Source: a virus. Taken from it: 64,000 bases of DNA. A program made the translations under genes and the position numbers. The notes under the pieces are model-generated. The model saw only the letters and a program-made list of their open reading frames with translations. It had not been told where the DNA came from and ran no database searches. Positions within the stretch are counted from its first letter, which is position 1; every line of letters starts with the position of its first letter. Positions 3,904 through 53,637 of the stretch are shown here, piece after piece. The stretch covers positions 13,060-77,059 of the IMG/VR virus record IMGVR_UViG_3300017992_000021; one strand, written 5' to 3'.

Positions 3904-4172
3904 ATAGAACGACTGACATTAAATGGGACGGCTGGCTGAAGCACGCCGACATCATCAAGAAAATCAAGTATAACATCGCCAAACTGTGGGACGCCGGAGG
4001 GGAGCCGAATATCGTCGTTGTTCCAAAACAATTCAGGGCACTCGCTGGTAGCGTCATCCTTGGGTGTAAAGTTGTAACAAGCCACGAGTACAACGACCCG
4101 GAGCGTATCTACGTCTTCGATACCAACAAGCTCGACCCGAAGCTGGAATTAACAGCGACACCCAACAAGTAG
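3900..4172 (+). CDS. hypothetical protein
   Basis: ATGA overlap with the thyX stop; RBS AGG. Confidence 0.55.
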   Translation: MNRTTDIKWDGWLKHADIIKKIKYNIAKLWDAGGEPNIVVVPKQFRALAGSVILGCKVVTSHEYNDPERIYVFDTNKLDPKLELTATPNK

Positions 4173-4226
4173 GTTTCCTAAAATGGGGTGGTTTCCCACG
4201 TGGGAAACCACCTGAAAATAGGAAAC
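4173..4226. repeat. long inverted repeat with a perfect 26-bp palindromic core
   Basis: GGTGGTTTCCCACGTGGGAAACCACC (4187-4212) plus outer arms GTTTCCTA/TAGGAAAC. Confidence 0.9.
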
Positions 4227-4238
4227 TCGGAGACGCTC

Positions 4239-6026
4239 ATGCGCATCGTAGGTAAGAACTTCAAGTGCTTCAGCCACTTCGACATCAATTTCGAGCCCGG
4301 CACGAATAACGTCGTGTTGGGCGACAGCAGCGACACCGACTATGCAGACTCCAACGGGGCAGGCAAGACCACCTTGGGCATCCACGCACTATGCTGGGTG
4401 CGTTACGGTAAGTACCCCGGAATGAGTAATGTCAACAGCCCGATAAACCTCGCAGCAGGGAAAGGCTGTGAGGTTTACCATGAGTTTACAGATACTTCGG
4501 GCAATCCCTGCATCATCAAACGCAGTCGTAAGCCGACTAAGCTGGAGTTCTGGCAGAACGGTACTGAAGTCAGCGGCGACAAAGATGTCGTGCAGGAAAA
4601 GATCAACGCCGCTATCGGTTGCGATTATGATTTCTACGTTAGGGTGTTTTTATATACCGGCGCTGATGAGTTCAAGTTCGCCAAGCTTACTGATGCGAAA
4701 CAGAAAGCGATTCTCGACACCATCCTGCCAATGGACTTCGATAAGCCGCGCGAACTGGCGGTGAAGGAGCGGGACAAGATTGCACAAGCCCGCGATAATA
4801 ACCGGCGCGATGTAGCCAACGTGATCGGCGAAATCAACACCGTGGGTTCGCAGATCCGTGAAGAAGAACAGCAGATAAACATTTGGGAGACCCAAAAACA
4901 GTCTGACTGGGCCGCCATCGAACAGAACGTGAAAGCGTGGGGTAACGTCCACGCTCAGAAAAAAGTGGAATACGATGATGTATGCGCACAAGCATCCGAG
5001 ACTCTATCCGCCTACACCAAGCTCCACGATCAAGTCGTGGTTCTTAGAAAAGATCGAACAGTACTTGAGCAGAAGCTGTTCGATGAAAAGACCCGACTCG
5101 CGTCGCTGTCCGGTAACGCTGATAACCGCATCTGCCCTACTTGCCACCAACGACTCGTGGATGAAACTGCTCTGGGACACGTACAGCAAAGAGTCACCGA
5201 AGTCGAAGCCTCTGTGGCACAGTTGGAACAGCAAGTAGCCGCGCTGCCGGACTCAACTGAGATAGAACAGGAGTTCGCGAAAGCTTCTGCAGAACTGGAT
5301 CACATAACCGGCGTCAAGGAGCACATCAACAACGAGATGCGCGAGGCTATGCATCATGTTGAGACTGGCACCGCGCAACTGAACAACAAGCCCGAGGGCG
5401 ACAATCCACACATCCACGCGTGCAAACTACTCAGCGACACTTTACAAAGACACCAAGACCGCAAAGCGGAATTAGATGCGGAGTGGAACAAGTGCGAGGA
5501 CGACCTGAAAATATGGGATGCCGTTGTCGGCGCCTTCGGTGCGAAGGGTCTAAAGCACTACGCCTTCGAAACGTTATGCCCGGAGCTTACCGCGACAGCG
5601 CACACGCTACTGAAGTACCTGTCGCCGGAAGACCTCGATGTAGAATTCAGATCCCATTCAACGGGTAAGAAGGTCAAGGAGGGTTTCCACATCGCCGCGC
5701 GCCGCAAGGGCGGCCCGCAGAATTACAGCGACCTCAGTGGTGGAGAGCGGGCAAGAATTGACTTGGTGGTCTTCTTAACGCTGTTCTTGACGGCCATGAA
5801 GCACGTCAGCAATACAGGCATCGTGGTCTTCGATGAGATCGCCGATACGCTTGACGATACAGGCAAGCAGATGGTCGTTCAGTTGCTTGATTTCTTCTCT
5901 AAAGAGTATGGCGTCACTTGCCTAATGCTGACCAACGACAAATCAATCTCTTCATACGTGTCACGAGGCTACTGCTGTAAGCGTACCGGAGACGTAAGCG
6001 AGGTGGAAAGGATTTTGGAAGGATGA
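4239..6026 (+). CDS. SbcC/Rad50 (gp46-like) SMC-type ATPase
   Basis: Walker A SNGAGKTT, coiled coils, zinc hook CPTC, ABC signature LSGGE, Walker B VVFDE; start moved to the ATG after RBS GGAG. Confidence 0.93.
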   Translation: MRIVGKNFKCFSHFDINFEPGTNNVVLGDSSDTDYADSNGAGKTTLGIHALCWVRYGKYPGMSNVNSPINLAAGKGCEVYHEFTDTSGNPCIIKRSRKPTKLEFWQNGTEVSGDKDVVQEKINAAIGCDYDFYVRVFLYTGADEFKFAKLTDAKQKAILDTILPMDFDKPRELAVKERDKIAQARDNNRRDVANVIGEINTVGSQIREEEQQINIWETQKQSDWAAIEQNVKAWGNVHAQKKVEYDDVCAQASETLSAYTKLHDQVVVLRKDRTVLEQKLFDEKTRLASLSGNADNRICPTCHQRLVDETALGHVQQRVTEVEASVAQLEQQVAALPDSTEIEQEFAKASAELDHITGVKEHINNEMREAMHHVETGTAQLNNKPEGDNPHIHACKLLSDTLQRHQDRKAELDAEWNKCEDDLKIWDAVVGAFGAKGLKHYAFETLCPELTATAHTLLKYLSPEDLDVEFRSHSTGKKVKEGFHIAARRKGGPQNYSDLSGGERARIDLVVFLTLFLTAMKHVSNTGIVVFDEIADTLDDTGKQMVVQLLDFFSKEYGVTCLMLTNDKSISSYVSRGYCCKRTGDVSEVERILEG

Positions 6027-6303: not shown

Positions 6304-6747
6304 TTAGTACGGGAACGGGAGATCAGCAGTGACCTTGAGAACTTCCACCATGACGAAATTGATGAACTCCTCGAAATCCAACAGGTGGGCAACCGACTCC
6401 AGCTTGCCGCAGATGAACCGTGCGAGAATCATCCGTTCAATCTGGTCGAGCTTCTCCAGTTCACTCGCTATCGCGGGAATATTAGTGGCAATGTCAATCA
6501 GCCCGCATTCGCTCTCGATGAACATCAGCCTCGGCTGCTCCATCTCAGCGTACACCGCCTCCAGCGATTCCCGAACATGTCGCATGGCTTCGGCGCGCTG
6601 CTCGAATTCCATCACAGATTCTTCGGCAACTTCCGGGGCAGCCTCCGGGGTGACTTCCGGGGTAGAGCCGCATGCGCCGATCAACAAACAGGCGGCAATT
6701 GCAAGGATCATGTAGATAGCGAGAATGTATAGACTGAGACGTAACAT
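6304..6747 (-). CDS. putative lipoprotein
   Basis: Signal peptide with lipobox LIGA-C followed by a GSTPEVTPEAAPE linker. Confidence 0.7.
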   Translation of the reverse strand: MLRLSLYILAIYMILAIAACLLIGACGSTPEVTPEAAPEVAEESVMEFEQRAEAMRHVRESLEAVYAEMEQPRLMFIESECGLIDIATNIPAIASELEKLDQIERMILARFICGKLESVAHLLDFEEFINFVMVEVLKVTADLPFPY

Positions 6748-6754
6748 GGCACAC

Positions 6755-7597
6755 CTACCTAACAATGATGAGCTTACCGCGCGTTGCGGCTACCATTTGT
6801 TGCGCTTGAGCAAGACCTCGTTTGGAATCGCCTACAAACACATACACGAATTCGCAGCCGTCAGCGGCTAGCTCCTCCCAGAGCGGAAGGAACAGTTCAA
6901 GGGTCCTCGAAGAATAGGTGCCATCGCAAAGGAAGATGAACTTGTCTAAGTCTTGGTATTTCGTAGCTGCTATTTCAAGCGCGGTCCACGCAGCAGTGCC
7001 GCCCGTAGCCTTTAGTTCGTCTACCAAGTTCTCCGCCATGGCCTTATTAGAGTCGGTGGCGTCCACCAGAGCCTCGAATGAGGTGACCTCGCTCTCAAAG
7101 AACACCAGAGCAAAGTCGTCTTCCTCCTCGTCCAGTTCTCGGATGCACTTGATGGCCTCTTCCTTCACGAGCGTCATCCGTGAGGGCGGATTAGAGTACA
7201 CGTTGCCATCGGCGTCTTCCATAAGCGGAGGATTATCCATGGCACTGCGCATAGAGCCTGAGTGGTCGATAACCAGCACGAAATTACCGTCAACCTCTTC
7301 GCCGAAAAAGGTCGGGAGGCCCGTGGGTTCAATCGTGACAATTTCAGGCGGCGGTTCGACAGGCGGCGGAGGCGGTGGAGGCGGCGGCGGCGGCGGCGGT
7401 ACTATCCCTGTGGGCGGTAGACGCGGCGGAATGCCTTCGGTCTTGGGAAGGATAATACGTAGGGGCGGGGCGGGTTTATCAACCCCCTCGTCGACCTCGC
7501 GTAGAATCCGAGGGGTAGACGGCTTCTCACCCGTTACAACTCCGTGGAGAAGCATAACGCAGACGAGCGCCGCACTTAGTGCCCATGTAGTTTTCAA
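6755..7597 (-). CDS. membrane-anchored / secreted vWA (MIDAS) domain protein with polyproline stalk
   Basis: TTG start after RBS GGGAGG; N-terminal hydrophobic segment; 12-Pro run; MIDAS VIDHSGSM...GGT...FLCDG. Confidence 0.88.
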   Translation of the reverse strand: MKTTWALSAALVCVMLLHGVVTGEKPSTPRILREVDEGVDKPAPPLRIILPKTEGIPPRLPPTGIVPPPPPPPPPPPPPVEPPPEIVTIEPTGLPTFFGEEVDGNFVLVIDHSGSMRSAMDNPPLMEDADGNVYSNPPSRMTLVKEEAIKCIRELDEEEDDFALVFFESEVTSFEALVDATDSNKAMAENLVDELKATGGTAAWTALEIAATKYQDLDKFIFLCDGTYSSRTLELFLPLWEELAADGCEFVYVFVGDSKRGLAQAQQMVAATRGKLIIVR

Positions 7598-12549: not shown

Positions 12550-14403
12550 CTACGCTATCCTGTAAAGTGACGCTGACATAATGGGTTCTGTCCCGCGTGT
12601 GATTTCGCGTGACAACGACTTAATCTTGTACTTGAAACCGGTGTCGTCGTCTTGAATAACATCGCCCGGCTCTAACAGAATGTCCCGCTTCATTTCCGAA
12701 TTCCTGACCGCCTGTTCCGCCAGACGTATCGCCAACTCTCGTTGTGCGAACGTGCGGAGTCCGGGATTCGTGACTTCCGGGTGGGTTGGCGCGATTGCCG
12801 GGACCACAGAATCATCTTCAGTAGAGAAAATATAATTCTTGATCTCGACATCTCGGCGCTCCCACTGTCTGAAGGGCTCAGTTCCCGGTATTTGGGAACC
12901 AAAGTGCTCAAGCATGGCGTCTACCCGGAGTTCCTTGTAGACGGTCTCAAACGGAACACCATGCACTTCAAACTCGTAGTTACCGATCATCTGCAGTACT
13001 GTCATGGCGCCAAGCAACAAGCCTTGTGCGGCAAAGTCCAAAGCCGTAGATGTAGACCATTCGGTATCGGAAGACGGCGGCGGCACTATAGGCGTGGGAG
13101 GCGTACCTATACCCCCGTGCACGTGGGCGCTAAGCAGGGTCTGCCACGCCTTGATCTGAATCATGGCGTCATTTTGCGTAGCATTTTTGGCGTCTAGTAA
13201 ACCAATGTACCCGGCGAAGAAAGCTGCGAGTGCGGCAACAACAAGAGCGGTATCGTTCTCAACCGTAATTCCGTATTTGTACTCCGTCTGCCTGTAGAAC
13301 TTTGGCGGATACACAGCCGTAATGAAGCCCTCTTCGCGGAAATTCTCAATCTTTGGAGAGATGACCGTGCGCCCTTCGGCGTCAGTAACGGAACCAATTT
13401 TGACTCGATAAGAATCCTGCTCATCACCACCCCACGCACCTTCGAACTCGGTACTGGGATCAAAGAACCCAAAAGTGCCTTTCACGGCGAATAGGCGTTG
13501 CTCTTTTTTAACGACGTCTGTCAGATCCTTATCCAGCCCGATGGCCCTAACACAGTTCACGGCGTCAAATGCTCCTGATGTCTGAGGCAGGTTTGCAATT
13601 TGAATACCGGAAAGTGATCTTGCAACGGGGTCATTGAGGCGTCGCGAGATGTAACGCAGTTTACCTTCACCGTTGAACTGCGGTACGAGGTGCAGCATCT
13701 CCCCTAATGTCTGTAGCGCCTTCAGAGGGTTTACCTGCACGAACTGAAGCTGCTTCTCGATACGGTAGGGCAGCGGGCCTATGAGTACCTCGTCGTTTTC
13801 GAGACCCATACCCCATTCAGCATCCGTAGCGAATTCCTTAGCGATCTGACCGATATCATCGTAATTGTTGCGGTACTGATAACGCTCATCCGGGTTCGGC
13901 AATTGATTGGGGAACCACACGCCGTCCGAGGTCAATTCCCACTCAGTGTACTGTGCGTCACGACTGATAAAGTTGATATCGACCTTACGCTCTACGCCGC
14001 GCTCTGAACGTCCAGTAGAGGGCGTAGTAACCGCGTTCTGAAGATCCTCCGTCGCGCTGGGCTGCCCCACGTGCCAACCTGTGAATGTCGTGGGCCACTC
14101 GGTCTGCGGAATGCGCGCATCGCCCTCTTTCAACTGCACGATGCAGTTGTAGAACATGCCCAGTGACACCTTCTCCAATGAGACCGTTAAATCGAGCGAA
14201 CTCGCATCGCTTTTCATATCCAGCGTGACGGAGCCGTTAGTTACATACGGCGTGATGTCTACGGGCGTCTGTTTGTAGCTGCCGCGCACGATGTCGCTGT
14301 CGGAATCCTGCCAACGCGAGAACAGCAATATCTGAAAATCAGGCACGTGGTCGTGCGCCTGCACTTTCAGATCGAGATCAGTACCTTGGTACGTACTCAG
14401 CAT
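12550..14403 (-). CDS. baseplate hub / tail-associated (Tal-like) protein
   Basis: LQTLGE...PQFNGEGKLRY, VNCVRAIG and C-terminal DILLEPGDVI...YKIKSLSRE patterns typical of hub proteins. Confidence 0.65.
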   Translation of the reverse strand: MLSTYQGTDLDLKVQAHDHVPDFQILLFSRWQDSDSDIVRGSYKQTPVDITPYVTNGSVTLDMKSDASSLDLTVSLEKVSLGMFYNCIVQLKEGDARIPQTEWPTTFTGWHVGQPSATEDLQNAVTTPSTGRSERGVERKVDINFISRDAQYTEWELTSDGVWFPNQLPNPDERYQYRNNYDDIGQIAKEFATDAEWGMGLENDEVLIGPLPYRIEKQLQFVQVNPLKALQTLGEMLHLVPQFNGEGKLRYISRRLNDPVARSLSGIQIANLPQTSGAFDAVNCVRAIGLDKDLTDVVKKEQRLFAVKGTFGFFDPSTEFEGAWGGDEQDSYRVKIGSVTDAEGRTVISPKIENFREEGFITAVYPPKFYRQTEYKYGITVENDTALVVAALAAFFAGYIGLLDAKNATQNDAMIQIKAWQTLLSAHVHGGIGTPPTPIVPPPSSDTEWSTSTALDFAAQGLLLGAMTVLQMIGNYEFEVHGVPFETVYKELRVDAMLEHFGSQIPGTEPFRQWERRDVEIKNYIFSTEDDSVVPAIAPTHPEVTNPGLRTFAQRELAIRLAEQAVRNSEMKRDILLEPGDVIQDDDTGFKYKIKSLSREITRGTEPIMSASLYRIA

Positions 14404-31977: not shown

Positions 31978-32375
31978 CTGCCGTCCTCCACGTTGACCTT
32001 GTACACGGCCTGCGTTAGCGTTATTACATCGCCCATGGAGAGGTTCTCGGTGTCTTCCTTCTTGAGACCGTGGTAATTCTTGTCCTCTTCCTCGACGGTA
32101 GACGTGCAGATAATATCGACGAGTTCGTCGTAATTATTTTCCGCAATCTCAAGGATGACGTCGAGCCAGTCCACAGCCTTACCCAGATCAAGCAAACCGT
32201 CCTCTGACCGCAGGCTGCCTAAATCGAGCACGTTACGCTCTCTAAGCACGCTGAGGATCTTTCGGAATTTACCCATCACCGTCACGGCGCGAAACGCCGT
32301 GAATTCCTGAATGAGCAAAACCCTCCCGCTGCTCAGTTCGACTTCGGTTGAAGCCGCTGTTTCAATCCGCTTCAT
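31890..32375 (-). CDS. tail assembly chaperone gpG
   Basis: Between tail tube and TMP; RBS GGAGG before ATG 32375. Confidence 0.75.
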   Translation of the reverse strand: MKRIETAASTEVELSSGRVLLIQEFTAFRAVTVMGKFRKILSVLRERNVLDLGSLRSEDGLLDLGKAVDWLDVILEIAENNYDELVDIICTSTVEEEDKNYHGLKKEDTENLSMGDVITLTQAVYKVNVEDGSLKQKLEFLTKKTETPAEDSSAQLTTVDA

Positions 32376-32464
32376 TTTTCCTCCAGAAAATCGTTGAAAA
32401 AACCGACACAAGAAGTTCCGCAACTTCTAATAGCCATAATAGCTAATTCGGATAATGAAGTGGG

Positions 32465-32493
32465 AAAGAAAAAGGGCTGCCGAAGCAGCCCTT
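32465..32493 (-). terminator. rho-independent terminator after the tail tube gene
   Basis: AAGGGCTGC-TTCG-GCAGCCCTT followed by TTTCTTT. Confidence 0.85.
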
Positions 32494-32518
32494 ATTCCGC
32501 AAAGGATTAGAGCATCCT

Positions 32519-33736
32519 TTAGACGCAGGAGCCCTGCGGGGATACATAGAAGTCGCGGAAGTCCTTGAACAGCACGAAACGGCCACGACGGCCAATACCG
32601 TCGTCGAGGATCGTGCATGTGATCCCGGCTTTCATGAATTCCTGCGGGTTGACAGTGATGGCGCCATTCAGAGCGATGGAGACATTGTAGAACTCGTAGA
32701 ACCCTTGCGGGCCGTTGTTCGACAAAATCTGCACACGCAGCGCACCCTGAAGTGCGATGCCGTCCTGAAGGCTGTAATCACACGCCTCGCGAGTGAAGCT
32801 GTACACAATGCGGACCTGACCACCGTCAGGGATGGCACCCGTGCCAATGCGCTCGATCGTAGCGGCGGAAGTCGCCACTGCAGAAGCGAACGAGAACGGG
32901 CCGCCACCGAGATCGGTGTCGAGGTTGCCAGTTGCCGTGATGTCATCAGGATCAACGCCGTCGAGGGCGTTGGCATTGATGGTGACCACAGAACCGGCGA
33001 CAGTCGCATGGAAGTACGTACCGGCGTAGGCATTAACCGCCTCCGCAAGAGCGGCGGCGAGTTCGCCCGTAGTACCGAGGCTAGCTTCAAAATTTGAGGT
33101 AGCGGTAAGAGTGATCGTACCGCCAGTCTCTGGATTCGGAAGAACAAGCGTATCGGTACCGCCGTACGTAACACCACTAACCGTGATCGCCACGGTCGAG
33201 TGCGTACCGGCCACTGCTGCCGTAGGTGTGTAGTCCGTGCCAGAAACGTACTGTACAGAACCATTGAGGTTTGTGACCTCGATGATTGTGGTCGCACGGT
33301 TACTGAGAGCGCCACCAGTGACGCCTTCGACCGCTACCGGTGCGTAGGCTTCGGCGGTGGTACCGCTCAGGCGGACACGGGCTGCCTCGTACACCGTTGC
33401 CGAATTGGCGGCGGTGTCATTACGATCAACGATCGTGGCAGAGCGGAACATGATTTCGAGGTTACGGCCAACCAACTCTGTCATCGACAGGTTGATTTCA
33501 CCGGCATTCTCTCCGACCATGCGCCGTACGGTCGAGTAGATACCCAACCGGGCCGACTTCTTTTCAACGAAGTTCTCAGTGATGTTGAGTTCAATGTCCT
33601 CAACGTCGCCGAGTTCGAAATACTGCCCTTGGGTGTTGTTAGCATCGAAGGGAGCAAACCACGCTGAAATGCGAGACGGGAGAGTAAGATTCTGCGGATT
33701 GAATGGCCGCACAACTTCGCGTGCTATTGCAGGCAT
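32519..33736 (-). CDS. major tail tube protein with Ig-like/decoration insertion
   Basis: Position and following terminator; YFELGDVEDIELNITE and GALRVQ...YEFYNVSI tube-like halves flanking a Thr/Gly-rich insert. Confidence 0.8.
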   Translation of the reverse strand: MPAIAREVVRPFNPQNLTLPSRISAWFAPFDANNTQGQYFELGDVEDIELNITENFVEKKSARLGIYSTVRRMVGENAGEINLSMTELVGRNLEIMFRSATIVDRNDTAANSATVYEAARVRLSGTTAEAYAPVAVEGVTGGALSNRATTIIEVTNLNGSVQYVSGTDYTPTAAVAGTHSTVAITVSGVTYGGTDTLVLPNPETGGTITLTATSNFEASLGTTGELAAALAEAVNAYAGTYFHATVAGSVVTINANALDGVDPDDITATGNLDTDLGGGPFSFASAVATSAATIERIGTGAIPDGGQVRIVYSFTREACDYSLQDGIALQGALRVQILSNNGPQGFYEFYNVSIALNGAITVNPQEFMKAGITCTILDDGIGRRGRFVLFKDFRDFYVSPQGSCV

Positions 33737-37925: not shown

Positions 37926-38927
37926 CTATCGTCCTTCTGCTGGGGGTGGCGGTGTCGGCAATCCCGCAGAAGCCGCCTCGGTCTCACCCTTTGCCGCAGC
38001 ATTTGTTTGCGGCGATACTGTCGCATCCGTCACAGCTTCGTCAGGCGTAGATGGTGCCTGCTTGAGAGTCTTGTCGGGAGCCATTGACGTCTTTTGTGGG
38101 GATTGGCCCTCTACGTGTGATGTTTGCGTGATGGCTGGCGCCGGGACCTGACCCTGCGGTTGCGGGGTTTGCTGAGGCTGCGCGGGTTGCTGCTGCCTCT
38201 GCCCCTTGGGATCGAGGTTCACGAGCACAGGATTTCCGCCGGTCGGCGACTGTACCGACGTAACCTGCGAGTTGAACCGCGCAGAATGGTCGGTCTTGGA
38301 ATTCAGTTCTTCCTGTGTCGGATCACGGAACGGCATAAATGCGATTTGCACGCGCTCCTCAGGTGCAAGCTCCTTGAGCATTACCACCTTGCGGCCCGTG
38401 TTCGAATCGATGCTGATATTCGTATCCTCGATCTTTTCGGAGTAGATGTAGTTCTTGACCTGATTCATCAGTTGCAGAACCAACTTCACAGGCACCTTCC
38501 GAATTTCCCAAGGTACGAATTCGTGGCGTGACCGCTCCCACAGTACGGTGACGGTCCTACTGGTGCAGACGTCGATCATCTGCTCCTTCATTGCCCGCAG
38601 CGAGTGCGTACGCTTTGGTTCACGCGTGAAATTCGCGGCCTCCATCACAACCAGCAGCATCGGAATATTTTCATGCGGCTGATAGATGGGTGCCTCGCGC
38701 TGATCGCCCACAAATGTTTGACGAATGAAATCGTTAATACGCCTGCGCGCATTATCAACGACCTCTTGTACGACAGGCTTTTTCATCGGATCAAGGTCCT
38801 GCTGCGTCTGTCCACCGTATGAAGTAGCGGATGCTGCTCCAAACGGCAGGATAGCTGGTCCTTGTGCCCTTTGTGGCGCACCTGCTTGCTGAGCAGGGAG
38901 TCCGGGTTGCGCCGGTAATCCACTCAT
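37926..38927 (-). CDS. hypothetical protein with Pro/Gln-rich disordered termini
   Basis: RBS AGGAG; follows the MCP terminator. Confidence 0.65.
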   Translation of the reverse strand: MSGLPAQPGLPAQQAGAPQRAQGPAILPFGAASATSYGGQTQQDLDPMKKPVVQEVVDNARRRINDFIRQTFVGDQREAPIYQPHENIPMLLVVMEAANFTREPKRTHSLRAMKEQMIDVCTSRTVTVLWERSRHEFVPWEIRKVPVKLVLQLMNQVKNYIYSEKIEDTNISIDSNTGRKVVMLKELAPEERVQIAFMPFRDPTQEELNSKTDHSARFNSQVTSVQSPTGGNPVLVNLDPKGQRQQQPAQPQQTPQPQGQVPAPAITQTSHVEGQSPQKTSMAPDKTLKQAPSTPDEAVTDATVSPQTNAAAKGETEAASAGLPTPPPPAEGR

Positions 38928-38982
38928 GATTTTCTCCTGTACTTTCCAACGAAAAACGAAAAATAGCTGAGATCAGTATAAC

Positions 38983-39012
38983 GAAAGGGGGAAGCTCGTG
39001 CCTCCCCCTTTC
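38983..39012 (-). terminator. hairpin / terminator after MCP
   Basis: GAAAGGGGGAG...CTTCCCCCTTTC; followed by GTTATACT. Confidence 0.65.
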
Positions 39013-39035
39013 TTCCGTTACCGAAAAACCTCGGA

Positions 39036-40052
39036 TTATGAGGTCTGGATGTCACGGATAGAACCCGCCATAAACGGATTCTTGTACTGAAGCTGCGAGT
39101 ACGTCTTCGCGAACATGATGCTCGCGTCCTTGTTACCCGCATCGCGCGGCTCGATCTCGAAATCAAGCAGCATCTTGAACTTCAGCAAGTCGATGTCGAT
39201 GAAGTCCATCCGGCCTTCCTCATACAGAGGAACGCTGATGATGGGAACATCATTGAACATCAGGGCTTCGAAGCCGCCAACGTAGCGCAGTGGGCTAGTT
39301 GACTGGGCAGGTGCGAACGTGTAACGACGATCAACACCGAGCAGCAGACCGAACTGAGTGAACACGTTCGGTGAGCAGAAGATATGCGTGATCTTGCCCT
39401 GACGGACAGCACGCACTTCATTCAGGATCTGGTGCAGAAGCAGTTCCGAGATCGGGCGTGGCGTTCCCGGTGAGACCGGGTTACGCAGCACGAAGGACTG
39501 CCACCACGTGTCAACGGAGCGGTCGATGGTACCGTAAGTACCAACGTCGCCACCGTCGTCAACCATGGCCTGAATGCCGGTGAGGTCGAGGCCAGTCGCA
39601 TCCAGCGAGGCGTGTACGCCGTTGAGATTACCAGCGCCGTCCGACAGACTCTGCAGATTCATGTTTGCCTGAAGCTGCTTGAGGGCCTGCTCGGTGTTTT
39701 CGGCGAGGGAGTCTATGATCGCGCTACGCGACTTGGTAATCGCTTGTGCGAGACCTGAGACCTTGATCGGAACACCATTGAGTTTCCAATCCAGACGTGC
39801 AGTGTCGAACTGCTCGCCGAGATCGTTGCGGTCAATTCCGATGTCTCCGTTTTCGGCGTAGGAGCCCGCTGCTGGATTTCCTGCGTAGTACACCTTCCAA
39901 GTGATGTCCTTCTCGACATACGACTCTTCGGTGGGCTTCAGGAGTTCCATGAACACATTGTTCCGGACGAATGTACGGTAGAAGGTAGGCTCGAACTCCT
40001 CCTTCACCATGACAGCCGCATCGGAAAAATTGAAGCCGACTTCATTCGGCAT
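39036..40052 (-). CDS. major capsid protein (HK97 fold)
   Basis: Follows the scaffold; SDGAGN...LTGIQAMVD...TYGTIDRS...WWQS, GFEALMFNDVPII; start at ATG 40052 after RBS GGGAG. Confidence 0.88.
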   Translation of the reverse strand: MPNEVGFNFSDAAVMVKEEFEPTFYRTFVRNNVFMELLKPTEESYVEKDITWKVYYAGNPAAGSYAENGDIGIDRNDLGEQFDTARLDWKLNGVPIKVSGLAQAITKSRSAIIDSLAENTEQALKQLQANMNLQSLSDGAGNLNGVHASLDATGLDLTGIQAMVDDGGDVGTYGTIDRSVDTWWQSFVLRNPVSPGTPRPISELLLHQILNEVRAVRQGKITHIFCSPNVFTQFGLLLGVDRRYTFAPAQSTSPLRYVGGFEALMFNDVPIISVPLYEEGRMDFIDIDLLKFKMLLDFEIEPRDAGNKDASIMFAKTYSQLQYKNPFMAGSIRDIQTS

Positions 40053-49056: not shown

Positions 49057-51063
49057 TTACGGTTGTCCGTCAATGGCGTAGAAAGGCATCTTTGGAGGTG
49101 CGCCCTGCTGTTCCTTCGCTGTGCGCCAGTTCTGCATGGCGATGTGCTCGTCCACACCCTCTTCCCGCGTCTGCTGGGTGACGAAAGAATACATGTCCGG
49201 ATTACGCTTCAAAAGGTGTTTAATAGCCATTTGCGCGGCGATACCACGATTGAGATCCAGCGAGAGGCGCTGTAAAAAGGCAAGACAGTCCACCGTACCA
49301 TCCACGGTATCGTCGTGTGCCGCCTGCGGGAATTTCGTGAGTTCCTCAAAACATTCATCGATGTCTTTTTTCGCTAAAGACGGATGCGAGGTGAGCGGGA
49401 TATAGAATTGACCACGTTCTACGAGCGGGGACACTCCCAGAGCACGCGTGGTCTTGTCAGTCTTGCCACGCTTAACCTCGAACACTGGTGCGAAAAATCC
49501 AAACATGACGGATAATTCGTTGAGCGTGTCAGCAAGTACCTTCTGGTATGCCACACTCTCCACGAGGAAACCCATGTGCCGGAAGGGTCTCGTACCTTCG
49601 ACAACCGGATCGCCTTCGCCTACCTTCCCCGACGGCCAGTACCGCCCACCGAATTGATGGTTGTACGCAACGAAGTGCTTGAACATCAAGCGCATCTGCG
49701 TAGCAAAGCTGGCCCGCACACGATCGACGTCCACCAGATAATACCGACGCTGGTTGGGGGAATACCCCGCCGTAACGATCGCTGTGTAATCCCGGTCAGA
49801 TTTCTCTGCGGATTTTCCACGTGAACCGGCAGGATCGATCGCAGTAACAACGATGAGGTCATCAGGCAGAATCTCGTAATGCATGCCCACCGAACGCAAG
49901 TACTCCTCTTGCATGGGCGTGAAGAACGTAGCATCCGAAATCCAGTATCGGAACCAATCGGGGTGGAAATACCTTGTGCTGTCGTCCAGCGGATTAAGTA
50001 AGAACTCCTTCGAGAACGCCAGCGAGCCAATGTCGTTCTTTTTCCAGTACAGATACGAGAGATAATAAATCTCATCCGGATCTGCGGTGCGGAGTTCCTC
50101 ATCCGTGTACGGCCTGCCGGTACGGTCTACCGGGCGGTTCATATCAGGCTGCGACCAGTATTCCGGCCACAATGGGTTGACTGGGTTCAATTGCTCATCG
50201 AACCCATCACACGCAGGCATCTTGACCTTCATCCACAACGCCGTGCGGGTGGTGTCTTTCCACAACCGCATAACGAGGTCGTCGTCATGAACGGTCGTGC
50301 CTACGATAATGATGTTGCCGACGCCAGTCTCGGGCACGTTGTAGGCTGCACTGAAGAACCAGTTCCACAGCTTGTCACGCACCTCCTGCGTTTTGACGTC
50401 CTTGTCTTCGATGACGTCATCGAAGATCAGCAGGTCGGGGCGGTACGATTTCAGCGTACGGTACCTAACTCGACCTCGCCGGTCACGCTTGATGAAATCC
50501 CGAGCTAGATCCTCGGGCAGCGATTCGTTGGTACCACGGACAGACCCGCCGACACCTGCGGTGAACACAACGACCTGATTGGTTGTCTTGATGTAGCGGG
50601 TACGCCACGTCTCTTTCTGGTTGATCCTGTCAAATCCAACCAAGTCACCGAAGCACGCCCGAATGCGATGATTGTGCTCCAGTTCAGTCCTGATTTTGTT
50701 GAGGAACTTCTCAGCGTTGGGTGCCGTAGTGGAAACGATGCCAATGTGGCGCTTGCGCCGGTAGCAGATATTCCACAGGACGTAGGCGAAATTGAATAGC
50801 GTTGATTTTCCATGCTCACGTGGGAGTAAGAACAGCGCGTGTCTGCCGGGCCTCAGGTTCTGCAGGTCCTTCTGTATTTTCCTGTGGAAATTACCGAAGT
50901 CCCGCGTGAAGTGCTCTCTCAGAAAATACCGGCAGAAAAATCCGAAGTCATGAGAGAGTTCGACAGCGATCGACAGGTTATTCTCAAAAGCGTGAACGTC
51001 TACCCACACCTCTGGCGGTGCTTCTTGTACGGGTGCGGGCATTAATTCAGCTACTGGAGTCAA
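49057..51063 (-). CDS. terL: terminase large subunit
   Basis: Walker A PREHGKS, Walker B LLIFDD, coupling motif VGTT, RNase H AIDPA...RDYTA...HDDTVD. Confidence 0.95.
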   Translation of the reverse strand: MTPVAELMPAPVQEAPPEVWVDVHAFENNLSIAVELSHDFGFFCRYFLREHFTRDFGNFHRKIQKDLQNLRPGRHALFLLPREHGKSTLFNFAYVLWNICYRRKRHIGIVSTTAPNAEKFLNKIRTELEHNHRIRACFGDLVGFDRINQKETWRTRYIKTTNQVVVFTAGVGGSVRGTNESLPEDLARDFIKRDRRGRVRYRTLKSYRPDLLIFDDVIEDKDVKTQEVRDKLWNWFFSAAYNVPETGVGNIIIVGTTVHDDDLVMRLWKDTTRTALWMKVKMPACDGFDEQLNPVNPLWPEYWSQPDMNRPVDRTGRPYTDEELRTADPDEIYYLSYLYWKKNDIGSLAFSKEFLLNPLDDSTRYFHPDWFRYWISDATFFTPMQEEYLRSVGMHYEILPDDLIVVTAIDPAGSRGKSAEKSDRDYTAIVTAGYSPNQRRYYLVDVDRVRASFATQMRLMFKHFVAYNHQFGGRYWPSGKVGEGDPVVEGTRPFRHMGFLVESVAYQKVLADTLNELSVMFGFFAPVFEVKRGKTDKTTRALGVSPLVERGQFYIPLTSHPSLAKKDIDECFEELTKFPQAAHDDTVDGTVDCLAFLQRLSLDLNRGIAAQMAIKHLLKRNPDMYSFVTQQTREEGVDEHIAMQNWRTAKEQQGAPPKMPFYAIDGQP

Positions 51064-51066
51064 ACG

Positions 51067-51097
51067 AAAACCCCCTGTGCCGGGCTAACACAGAGGG
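51067..51097 (-). terminator. terminator-like hairpin immediately upstream of terL
   Basis: CCCTCTGTG...CACAGGGGG followed by TTTTCGTTT. Confidence 0.6.
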
Positions 51098-51186
51098 CGT
51101 TCGACAGGTAAGAACAGACGCCTTAAACGGGAGCGGAGGGCATGTGTGAGGTGAGTGCGTGGCCCCGTCGCTAGCGCATCGTCGAA

Positions 51187-51216
51187 ATTCTACTCCACCC
51201 TCTGTATTGGTGTCAA
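51187..51216 (-). promoter_or_regulatory. sigma70-type promoter
   Basis: TTGACA-18 nt-TAGAAT. Confidence 0.7.
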
Positions 51217-52865: not shown

Positions 52866-52940
52866 TGGATGCGGCGGAAGGACTCGAACCTTCGACGGGA
52901 GGATCAAAACCTCCTGTGTTACCGATTACACCACGCCGCA
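52866..52940 (-). tRNA. tRNA-Gln(TTG)
   Basis: TGCGGCG/CGCCGCA acceptor, GGAGG-TTTTGAT-CCTCC anticodon arm, GAAGG-TTCGAGT-CCTTC T-arm, encoded CCA. Confidence 0.96.
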
Positions 52941-53046
52941 GCCGTGGTATCAGAAATGTCAAAAAGCGACCCCAAAAGAGACCGCCAGTACGCTAGCAAA
53001 AAAGTATCTAGGGATTTTGGGAAACTTTTTCATTTTTGTCAAGGCT

Positions 53047-53220
53047 TTTCCGTGGTTGGACGCTAGCCGACTCCATCACAGGTTCGAGCTACCTTCAGGC
53101 GCACGCAGCCCTTTTTACGGTCCGTGAGCCTAAAACGGCGTGGCAATCGCCGACGTGCTTTGCTGTCCGCCCACGGACACGGAGCCGGTAGCTGGGTCTT
53201 GCCATGACCCCCAACCGAAA
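53047..53220 (-). ncRNA. uncharacterised highly structured RNA with kissing loop and pseudoknots
   Basis: Helices GGTTGG/CCAACC, GGGTC/GACCC, AGCTACC/GGTAGCT, GTCCGTGGGC/GCTCACGGAC, CGGCG/CGCCG; complementary loops TGGCAA and TTGCCA. Confidence 0.7.
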
Positions 53221-53227
53221 AATAAAC

Positions 53228-53323
53228 AGGGCGTGAGCAGGAATCGAACCTGCGGGTAGGCATATCCGGAATACAGCCCACAGCCATCTTTCAGGCCGCG
53301 TTTACCACTTCGCCATCACTCCC
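53228..53323 (-). ncRNA. class-II tRNA-like RNA with aberrant anticodon arm and very long variable arm
   Basis: D-arm GCGAAGTGGTAAACGC, T-arm GCAGG-TTCGATT-CCTGC, acceptor GGAGTGA/TCACGCC; no CCA. Confidence 0.8.
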
Positions 53324-53405: not shown

Positions 53406-53475
53406 TGGTGGAGGCGGAGGGAGTTGCACCCTCGTCTTCGACACCACTATGTGTCGAGCGTTCCTACGCGCCCCC
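53406..53475 (-). ncRNA. minimal tmRNA-like RNA (tRNA-like domain only)
   Basis: GGGGGCG/CGCCTCC-A-CCA with G3:U70, stemless D-loop, GAC-GAGGG-TGCAACT-CCCTC; 7-bp hairpin in place of the mRNA-like domain. Confidence 0.8.
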
Positions 53476-53560: not shown

Positions 53561-53637
53561 TGGTAGCGGGGGGTGGATTCGAACCATCGACCTTCAGGTT
53601 ATGAGCCTGACAAGCTGACCAACTGCTCTACCCCGCA
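53561..53637 (-). tRNA. initiator-type tRNA-fMet(CAT)
   Basis: U1xU72 mismatch, GCGGGG/CCCCGC, TCAGG-CTCATAA-CCTGA, TTCGAAT T-loop, A73-CCA. Confidence 0.93.

Follow-up and report, generated by a model that had tools for sequence, protein, structure and literature searches.

A non-coding gap in a phage tRNA gene cluster that may encode an orphan structured RNA

The minus strand of a phage genome recovered as IMG/VR virus record IMGVR_UViG_3300017992_000021 carries a small cluster of tRNA and tRNA-like genes, and the last of the tRNA-like genes is separated from the next promoter-like site by a gap of less than 200 nucleotides. This arrangement raises the question of whether the gap encodes a structured RNA or is simply spacer DNA. 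The record is approximately 77 kb long with a CheckV completeness of 82%, and the window analysed here is a 64,000-nucleotide stretch of it (positions 13,060 to 77,059), to which all coordinates below refer unless another locus is named. The gap had been singled out as a multi-pseudoknot RNA of about 175 nucleotides with kissing loops and two competing helices (53047-53220), and a new ribozyme, switch or scaffold was proposed. As detailed below, this original prediction is accurate as a description and unproven as an interpretation.

The head and packaging module of the phage is located on the minus strand, as is the RNA gene cluster. The candidate lies approximately 2 kb upstream of the large terminase gene. 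A peptide deformylase gene is found upstream of the head and packaging module, and one module protein has a weak match to the SPP1 portal that falls below threshold. A separate non-coding stretch (51064-51216) is present directly before the terminase gene. In the 5′ to 3′ direction of the minus strand, the order is tRNA-Met, mini-tmRNA, long-arm tRNA-like gene, candidate stretch, promoter-like site and tRNA-Gln, as follows.

53561-53637, minus strand: tRNA-Met (CAU)
53406-53475, minus strand: mini-tmRNA of 70 nucleotides, comprising the tRNA-like domain only (RF00023, 27-36 bits)
53229-53322, minus strand: tRNA-like gene with a long variable arm, 5′ of the stretch (RF00005, 35.9 bits)
53046-53223, minus strand: candidate RNA domain, the non-coding gap from the tRNA-like gene to the promoter-like site
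53014-53042, minus strand: sigma-70-like promoter, TTGACA-17-CAAAAT, immediately downstream of the stretch (agrees with the consensus at 10 of 12 positions; assigned by consensus only)
52866-52940, minus strand: tRNA-Gln (UUG)
49057-51063, minus strand: large terminase with a Terminase_6C nuclease domain

The mini-tmRNA has the G3.U70 pair, A73 and an encoded CCA, and six nucleotides take the place of 308 positions of the RF00023 model. The spacer between it and the long-arm tRNA-like gene holds a 10-bp hairpin, and a U-rich run of a few bases separates the latter gene from the candidate stretch. Taken as 53229-53323, the long-arm gene resembles bacterial tRNA-His in carrying one additional G ahead of position 1 and C at the discriminator position. 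It also has an A3:G70 mismatch and lacks a regular anticodon arm. Only when the ARAGORN threshold is relaxed to 90% is the gene called, as tRNA-His(GUG) with other borders (53229-53314).

All of the pairings named in the original prediction are present in the minus-strand sequence at 53047-53220. The helices considered in our analysis are listed here with their support in the folding ensemble.

53211-53222 with 53046-53059, minus strand: terminal closing helix, 12 bp (6 + 6), with probabilities of 0.91-0.99 for the inner 6 bp
53194-53210, minus strand: hairpin B, a 5-bp stem with the 7-nucleotide loop AUGGCAA, pair probability 0.99-1.0
53181-53192 with 53062-53074, minus strand: helix F′, 12 bp with one bulge, in the minimum free energy (MFE) and centroid structures
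53169-53178 with 53120-53129, minus strand: helix C, 10 bp, ensemble probability 0.19, forcing of which costs 0.4 kcal/mol
53136-53152, minus strand: hairpin D, a 5-bp stem with the 7-nucleotide loop AUUGCCA, pair probability about 0.5
53153-53158 with 53101-53106, minus strand: helix E, a crossing helix of 6 bp, from reading of the sequence

The closing stem GGUUGG/CCAACC (53216-53211 with 53059-53054) is longer than had been recognised. Past a bulge of two nucleotides (53052-53053), it continues with six outer pairs (53222-53217 with 53051-53046), and the resulting 12-bp terminal helix encloses the gap 53046-53223 exactly. The two predicted hairpins, GGGUC-AUGGCAA-GACCC (53210-53194) and CGGCG-AUUGCCA-CGCCG (53152-53136), have loops that match over 6 nucleotides (UGGCAA at 53204-53199 with UUGCCA at 53146-53141). 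The 10-bp helix (53178-53169 with 53129-53120) includes one G.U pair, and the A-rich segment CGUAAAAAG comes after its 3′ strand. The crossing helix GCACGU/GCGUGC (53158-53153 with 53106-53101) likewise exists in the sequence. Its probability is approximately zero in the nested ensemble, although nested folding cannot assess a crossing helix. Together, helices C and E would form an H-type pseudoknot.

The claim of two competing helices holds in part. Both partners of the AGCUACC... segment exist, one giving 7 bp (53093-53087) and the other 12 bp with one bulge (53074-53062, helix F′). However, the competition is not balanced, with duplex energies of −18.6 kcal/mol for helix F′ versus −9.8 kcal/mol for the 7-bp alternative (53087-53093). 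Because the alternative has a probability near zero in the nested ensemble and helix F′ is present in the MFE structure, the two helices do not constitute a balanced switch.

Whether these pairings exceed chance was judged against the 174-nucleotide windows of this same genome and against dinucleotide shuffles. Helices of at least 6 bp can form in 30 ways in the stretch versus a genome mean of 25.2 (sd 9.6) per window, and the longest is 10 bp versus a genome mean of 9.4 bp. At least one helix of 10 bp or more is present in 41% of windows. Since such helices are ordinary in this genome, a list of 6-10-bp helices is by itself no evidence for a functional RNA, and most of the originally named ones are no more than this genome yields by chance. 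Three features rise modestly above this background: the 12-bp terminal helix, the fold as a whole and the 6-bp match between the two loops. The MFE is −75.1 kcal/mol, which corresponds to z = −2.64 relative to dinucleotide shuffles and z = −1.57 relative to the composition-corrected background of genome windows, 6.6% of which are lower. Sliding windows near the stretch rank between 479 and 1561 of 2201, and folding of the plus strand is just as favourable (z = −2.94).

Hairpins B and D are the sole pair in the 64-kb window, on either strand, of perfect 5-bp hairpins with 6-nucleotide complementary loops. Shuffled sequences yield such a pair 0.07 times per strand, and by chance one is expected in roughly 7-13% of 64-kb windows. 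In a two-layer fold, where the MFE pairs are masked and the remainder is refolded, the pairing of the two loops emerges as the best helix of the second layer (−4.8 kcal/mol, z = −2.8, P = 0.017). A second-layer energy this low occurs in none of the 160 genome windows compared, and the two-layer total gives z = −3.4. The fold and loop statistics are suggestive for one locus, although not compelling across a scan of very many windows. Stronger folds are found elsewhere in the window, at 38887-39147 (minus strand, z = −4.7), 4061-4350 (plus strand, z = −4.3) and 32365-32625 (both strands, z = −3.9). These three are mostly between genes or at gene ends and lie far below the composition-corrected background.

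Our best reading, which we advance tentatively, is that the stretch specifies an orphan structured RNA, released by processing of the tRNA-cluster transcript in the manner of the phage T4 species 1 and 2 RNAs. Several observations favour this reading: the stretch is placed within a run of four minus-strand RNA genes, with a tRNA-like gene on one side and a promoter-like site on the other, it lacks credible coding capacity, and its terminal helix encloses exactly the gap. The shuffle and two-layer z-scores, a second layer unmatched among the genome windows, and a complementary-loop hairpin pair that is unique in 64 kb where 0.07 is expected point in the same direction, as does the presence of T4 rnaC and rnaD in a like position after tRNA-Arg.

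By this reading, the stretch would be the trailing non-coding RNA of a transcription unit that includes tRNA-Met, the mini-tmRNA and the tRNA-like gene, and would be transcribed on the minus strand jointly with these upstream genes. Its release might come about through the host tRNA-processing enzymes that trim the neighbouring tRNA-like gene. The liberated RNA would presumably survive as a compact domain because both of its ends are locked in the 12-bp terminal helix. Inside this domain, a three-way junction would bear hairpin B and the long 12-bp helix F′, beyond which the 10-bp helix and hairpin D might form. The 7-nucleotide loops of hairpins B and D, which are complementary over 6 nucleotides, might contact each other in the same RNA molecule or, just as readily, in two different ones.

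The closest analogue of the stretch is the T4 rnaC and rnaD pair, which encodes the species 1 and 2 stable RNAs of 139 and 119 nucleotides, respectively (NC_000866, 70908-71171). Like these RNAs, which follow tRNA-Arg, the last tRNA of T4, the stretch is non-coding and is encoded on the strand of a phage tRNA cluster, either inside it or at its end. It is also of similar size and, like them, belongs to no catalogued family. The likeness does not extend to sequence or structure, and a covariance model of the stretch (R1) scores no more than 4.7 bits on the T4 locus, which is noise. Furthermore, a T arm of the tRNA type is present close to the 3′ end of T4 rnaC and absent from the stretch, and the T4 RNAs are known to accumulate whereas the RNA of the stretch is a predicted one.

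Comparative searches count against the orphan RNA reading. No homologue of the stretch was found in the GenBank phages, IMG/VR, JGI metagenomes and GTDB genomes that were searched, and thus there is no covariation to draw on. A blastn search of GenBank phages with the 901-nucleotide cluster and with a 185-nucleotide stretch returned only tRNA-Met matches and noise. In IMG/VR, a pattern for the 17-mer of hairpin B gave one chance match (L003), a combination of both loops and the A-rich word gave 20 chance matches at gene starts with ATGGCAA, and the pattern ATGGCAAG...GCTCCGTGTC gave four chance matches in coding DNA. When the R1 model was run over 810 kb of phage loci with related tRNA-like domains, the stretch alone was matched.

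The closest terminase relatives of the phage are 77% (P0002) and 72% (P0003) identical. In the IMG/VR kin phages whose terminases are 49-64% identical (L002/L004-L007), the RNA cluster is absent, which also counts against the orphan RNA reading. One of these kin phages (L002, the same as L004; IMGVR_UViG_3300017991_000075), with a terminase 64% identical, has a single 105-nucleotide tRNA-like gene (L002:1668-1772, plus strand). This gene scores 45.4 bits with RF00005, has an insert of about 30 nucleotides in its anticodon region and is not called by ARAGORN. It may represent a tRNA that carries an intron or has been disabled. In another kin phage (L005, terminase 52% identical), positions 6739-6851 on the plus strand weakly match ar14, an alphaproteobacterial sRNA (32.5 bits, E = 0.018). 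These 113 nucleotides end about 150 nucleotides upstream of the terminase gene.

The identical stretch is present in three public DNA sequencing runs (two of sediment samples, one of seawater), which were read as Logan contigs. None of the three differs from the window over 7 kb of the locus, and therefore there is no population variation to read. Among the public runs listed as holding the stretch, there is no RNA run. The contigs of two independent runs (X2 and X3) break at 53044/53045, 2 nucleotides beyond the end of the stretch. This break is probably an assembly effect rather than a cassette border, as breaks occur about every 800 nucleotides at low depth.

The main rival explanation is that the gap is functionless spacer, left over between an RNA gene and the next promoter, in which the helices and the loop match are an occasional yield of a sequence of this length with 60% G+C. 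We consider this somewhat unlikely. It is consistent with helix statistics at the genome background, with an MFE only about 1.6 standard deviations below that background and with the unexceptional ranks of the nearby windows. It would equally account for a loop pair that chance supplies in an appreciable fraction of windows, for the missing relatives and for the absence of the cluster from kin phages. Most of these points have a cost for the orphan RNA reading as well, to which must be added that the two strands fold equally well and that a search for a terminator directly 3′ of the stretch found none. What speaks against chance structure is that phage genomes are densely packed and this gap sits amid RNA genes, that the terminal helix spans the gap exactly, and that the second-layer energy is beyond that of all 160 genome windows.

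A further alternative derives from the neighbouring mini-tmRNA. Over its last 37 nucleotides, this gene has 100% identity with the 3′ end of a one-piece tmRNA gene from a Bacillota sediment metagenome-assembled genome (G005; L235:561-912, minus strand). The identity spans the T arm, the acceptor strand, CCA and 6 nucleotides of 3′ flank (AAUUAG). In two genomes from the order of G005 the identity is 97%, and the exact 31-nucleotide 3′ end is found in two Bacillota assemblies, with G005 among them. Related tmRNA loci for this 3′ end are L236, L237, L241 and L242. To judge by the sequence match, this identity suggests a Bacillota host, and it points to the capture of a host tmRNA or of an att-like core. 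The terminase was not found in four candidate host genomes. No tyrosine integrase was detected in the 82%-complete record, and on this ground the idea that the stretch is an attP arm was rejected.

The mini-tmRNA belongs to a wider set of phage genes. A motif comprising the T arm and acceptor, GGGTGCAAYTCCC-N6-YCCACCA, marks more than 120 IMG/VR viral contigs. Permuted two-piece tmRNA genes are present in 43 of the 80 contigs examined (L111-L190), with tags like ANDNFA..ALAA and an intervening segment of 11-159 nucleotides. About 10 of the 80 carry mini-tmRNAs with the tRNA-like domain only in standard order (L112, L122, L124, L131, L155, L156, L159, L175 and L176). Neither the exact 25-nucleotide 3′ end of the present mini-tmRNA nor a pattern specific to it had a match in IMG/VR. 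In JGI metagenomes, a mini-tmRNA pattern revealed two more such genes (L231:1205-1285 and L232:1507-1588). Coding DNA rather than a similar RNA lies downstream of both, and the R1 model found nothing on either contig.

Given this neighbour, the stretch might be a degenerate remnant of a tmRNA body, covering the 5′ strand of P2, pseudoknot 1 and the terminal part of the tag. In this scenario, a host tmRNA gene was captured, duplicated and then trimmed, and the remnant stayed next to the mini-tmRNA. The matches UGGCAA/UUGCCA and UCCGUG/CACGGA would then be relics of tmRNA helices. Beyond the 37-nucleotide identity of the mini-tmRNA with the G005 gene, this explanation draws on an alignment, in order, of the first ~50 nucleotides of the stretch with nucleotides 9-65 of the G005 tmRNA. 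The two sequences have the words AUGGCAAG and GCUCCGUGUC in common, as well as CCACGGAAA out of order, and both strands of stem 2 of the G005 pseudoknot 1 (UCCGUG and CACGGA) are present in the stretch. Shared 7-mers with the G005 tmRNA body number 14 versus 3.8 in shuffles, and only 0.3% of genome windows reach 14. The layout of helix C, the A-rich CGUAAAAAG and helix E also resembles tmRNA pseudoknot 1, in which stem 1, stem 2, stem 1′, an A-rich GUAAA loop and stem 2′ follow in the same order. The stretch adjoins a tmRNA-derived gene and has a few words identical to those of the P2 and pseudoknot 1 region of RF00023.

This tmRNA lead did not survive controls, and we retain it as a minor and improbable rival. 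Local alignment to the G005 tmRNA has P = 0.03-0.07, and 21 of 338 genome windows (6%) score as high. The 7-mer statistic is heavy-tailed, since an unrelated Bacillota tmRNA, among 33 compared, shares 12 7-mers with the stretch, including scattered 10-mers and 11-mers. The spacing of the common words is not kept in the stretch. A covariance model of nucleotides 8-125 from four host-type tmRNAs (R2), run unfiltered over the whole window, left the stretch unmatched at E values up to 10. The Rfam models for tmRNA (RF00023) and permuted tmRNA (RF04321) likewise have no match on the stretch, and neither does an nhmmer profile of 43 permuted coding pieces. The components of a tmRNA tRNA-like domain, namely an acceptor stem with G3.U70, a T arm and a 3′ CCA, are absent from 53047-53220.

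A typical tag, which would start at a GCN resume codon about 10 nucleotides downstream of pseudoknot 1 and end in a hydrophobic ..(L/V/A)AA, is not readily recognised either, and relaxed ARAGORN settings gave no sensible tmRNA and no tag at the stretch. The tag search did bring out the open frame GCA AAG ... GCU GCG UGC GCC UGA (53163-53095), which starts like GCA AAC and is located within the proposed pseudoknot. However, this frame ends in ..AACA, unlike the typical ..LAA. A second candidate, GCU CGA ... UAG, encodes ARTCDGVG. The segment GGGGGU (53212-53207) could pair at 6 of 7 positions with the acceptor 3′ strand of the mini-tmRNA, and reading of the sequences revealed no P2 pairing between the stretch and the mini-tmRNA. 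A permuted two-piece tmRNA gene was rejected on three counts: P2 pairing between the pieces is absent, ARAGORN makes no such call, and the match of the Rfam permuted model extends no further than the tRNA-like gene.

A much less probable proposal is that the stretch encodes a small self-assembling phage RNA in which hairpins B and D of different molecules join by their loops to create dimers or closed rings, with the further possibility that the RNA acts with the mini-tmRNA on stalled host ribosomes. The phi29 packaging RNA (pRNA) joins by complementary loops. The phage RNAs ROOL and GOLLD, which are often encoded close to tRNA islands, owe their assembly to intermolecular kissing loops, initially interpreted as tertiary pairs (10.1101/2024.12.08.627333), and manA RNAs of less than 200 nucleotides form 60-mers (10.64898/2026.07.01.735769). 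Like all of these, the stretch is phage-encoded. It has two mutually complementary loops, and by analogy these loops could act between molecules. In this sense, the scaffold part of the original proposal, or a self-associating RNA more generally, is possible. Unlike these RNAs, the stretch has no Rfam match to any of the four families. A phi29-type packaging RNA was specifically rejected, as there is no pRNA match and this phage packages its DNA with a classical large terminase instead of a phi29-type motor.

The original proposal of a ribozyme or switch finds no support beyond the single-sequence fold, and no ribozyme family or core was detected. As predicted, the stretch matches no catalogued family when positions 53030-53235 are searched alone with Rfam 15 at E values up to 10. 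In particular, there are no matches to models for 6S, SRP, RNase P, riboswitches, ribozymes, Y-RNA-like RNAs, pRNA, ROOL, GOLLD or manA. Wider scans matched only the flanking tRNA, tmRNA-like and tRNA-like genes, and of the matches that overlap the stretch, the best is a plus-strand one to drum RNA (14 bits, E = 4.7). A decayed tRNA gene was rejected on the same basis, with no tRNA-model match within the stretch at E values up to 10.

HDV-like theta ribozymes sit 3′ of tRNA-like genes in some gut phages. The location of the stretch directly 3′ of a tRNA-like gene, and the several alternative pairings in its sequence, might therefore be taken to indicate a self-cleaving ribozyme or a riboswitch-like conformational switch. 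We regard this as highly improbable. Against it stand the ribozyme and riboswitch models that fail to match at E values up to 10 and the failure to find a hammerhead or HDV-like core by eye. The nearest hammerhead candidate, CUGAAGG...GAAC (53098-53082), lacks A9 and stem II by the same kind of reading. A switch is further disfavoured by the negligible ensemble probability of the 7-bp helix relative to its 12-bp competitor, and no downstream gene is placed for regulation, given that the promoter-like site comes next.

Least credible of all is a small protein gene, either a 74-amino-acid ORF (53063-53287) or a 36-amino-acid ORF whose AUG start codon lies in the hairpin B loop (53205), although both frames are open on the gene strand. 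The only long ORF, that of 74 amino acids, overlaps the tRNA-like gene scoring 35.9 bits and has no Pfam or PHROG match. Among 1.84 billion representatives, it has only two matches, weak and split over multiple stretches (E = 2e-5 and 8e-4), to repetitive parts of long proteins. There is no good ribosome-binding site, and by rough estimate an open frame of 36 codons occurs by chance in about one of four cases. The 36-codon frame (MARPSYRL...AACA; 53095-53205) runs into the GCA AAG...UGA frame and probably reflects chance. Protein coding by the stretch was rejected on the grounds that the 74-amino-acid ORF has no family and no real relatives and overlaps the tRNA-like gene.

If the orphan RNA reading is correct, the stretch would be one more of the unexplained small structured RNAs in phage tRNA clusters, a class that has been recognised since the T4 species 1 and 2 RNAs were described and that still lacks a function. 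Interest in this class has been raised by phage RNAs near tRNA islands that build cages via loop-loop contacts. The case made here concerns one sequence, and its value is mainly as a pointer. The mini-tmRNA is the firmer finding at this locus, and its 3′ end suggests which bacteria host the phage.
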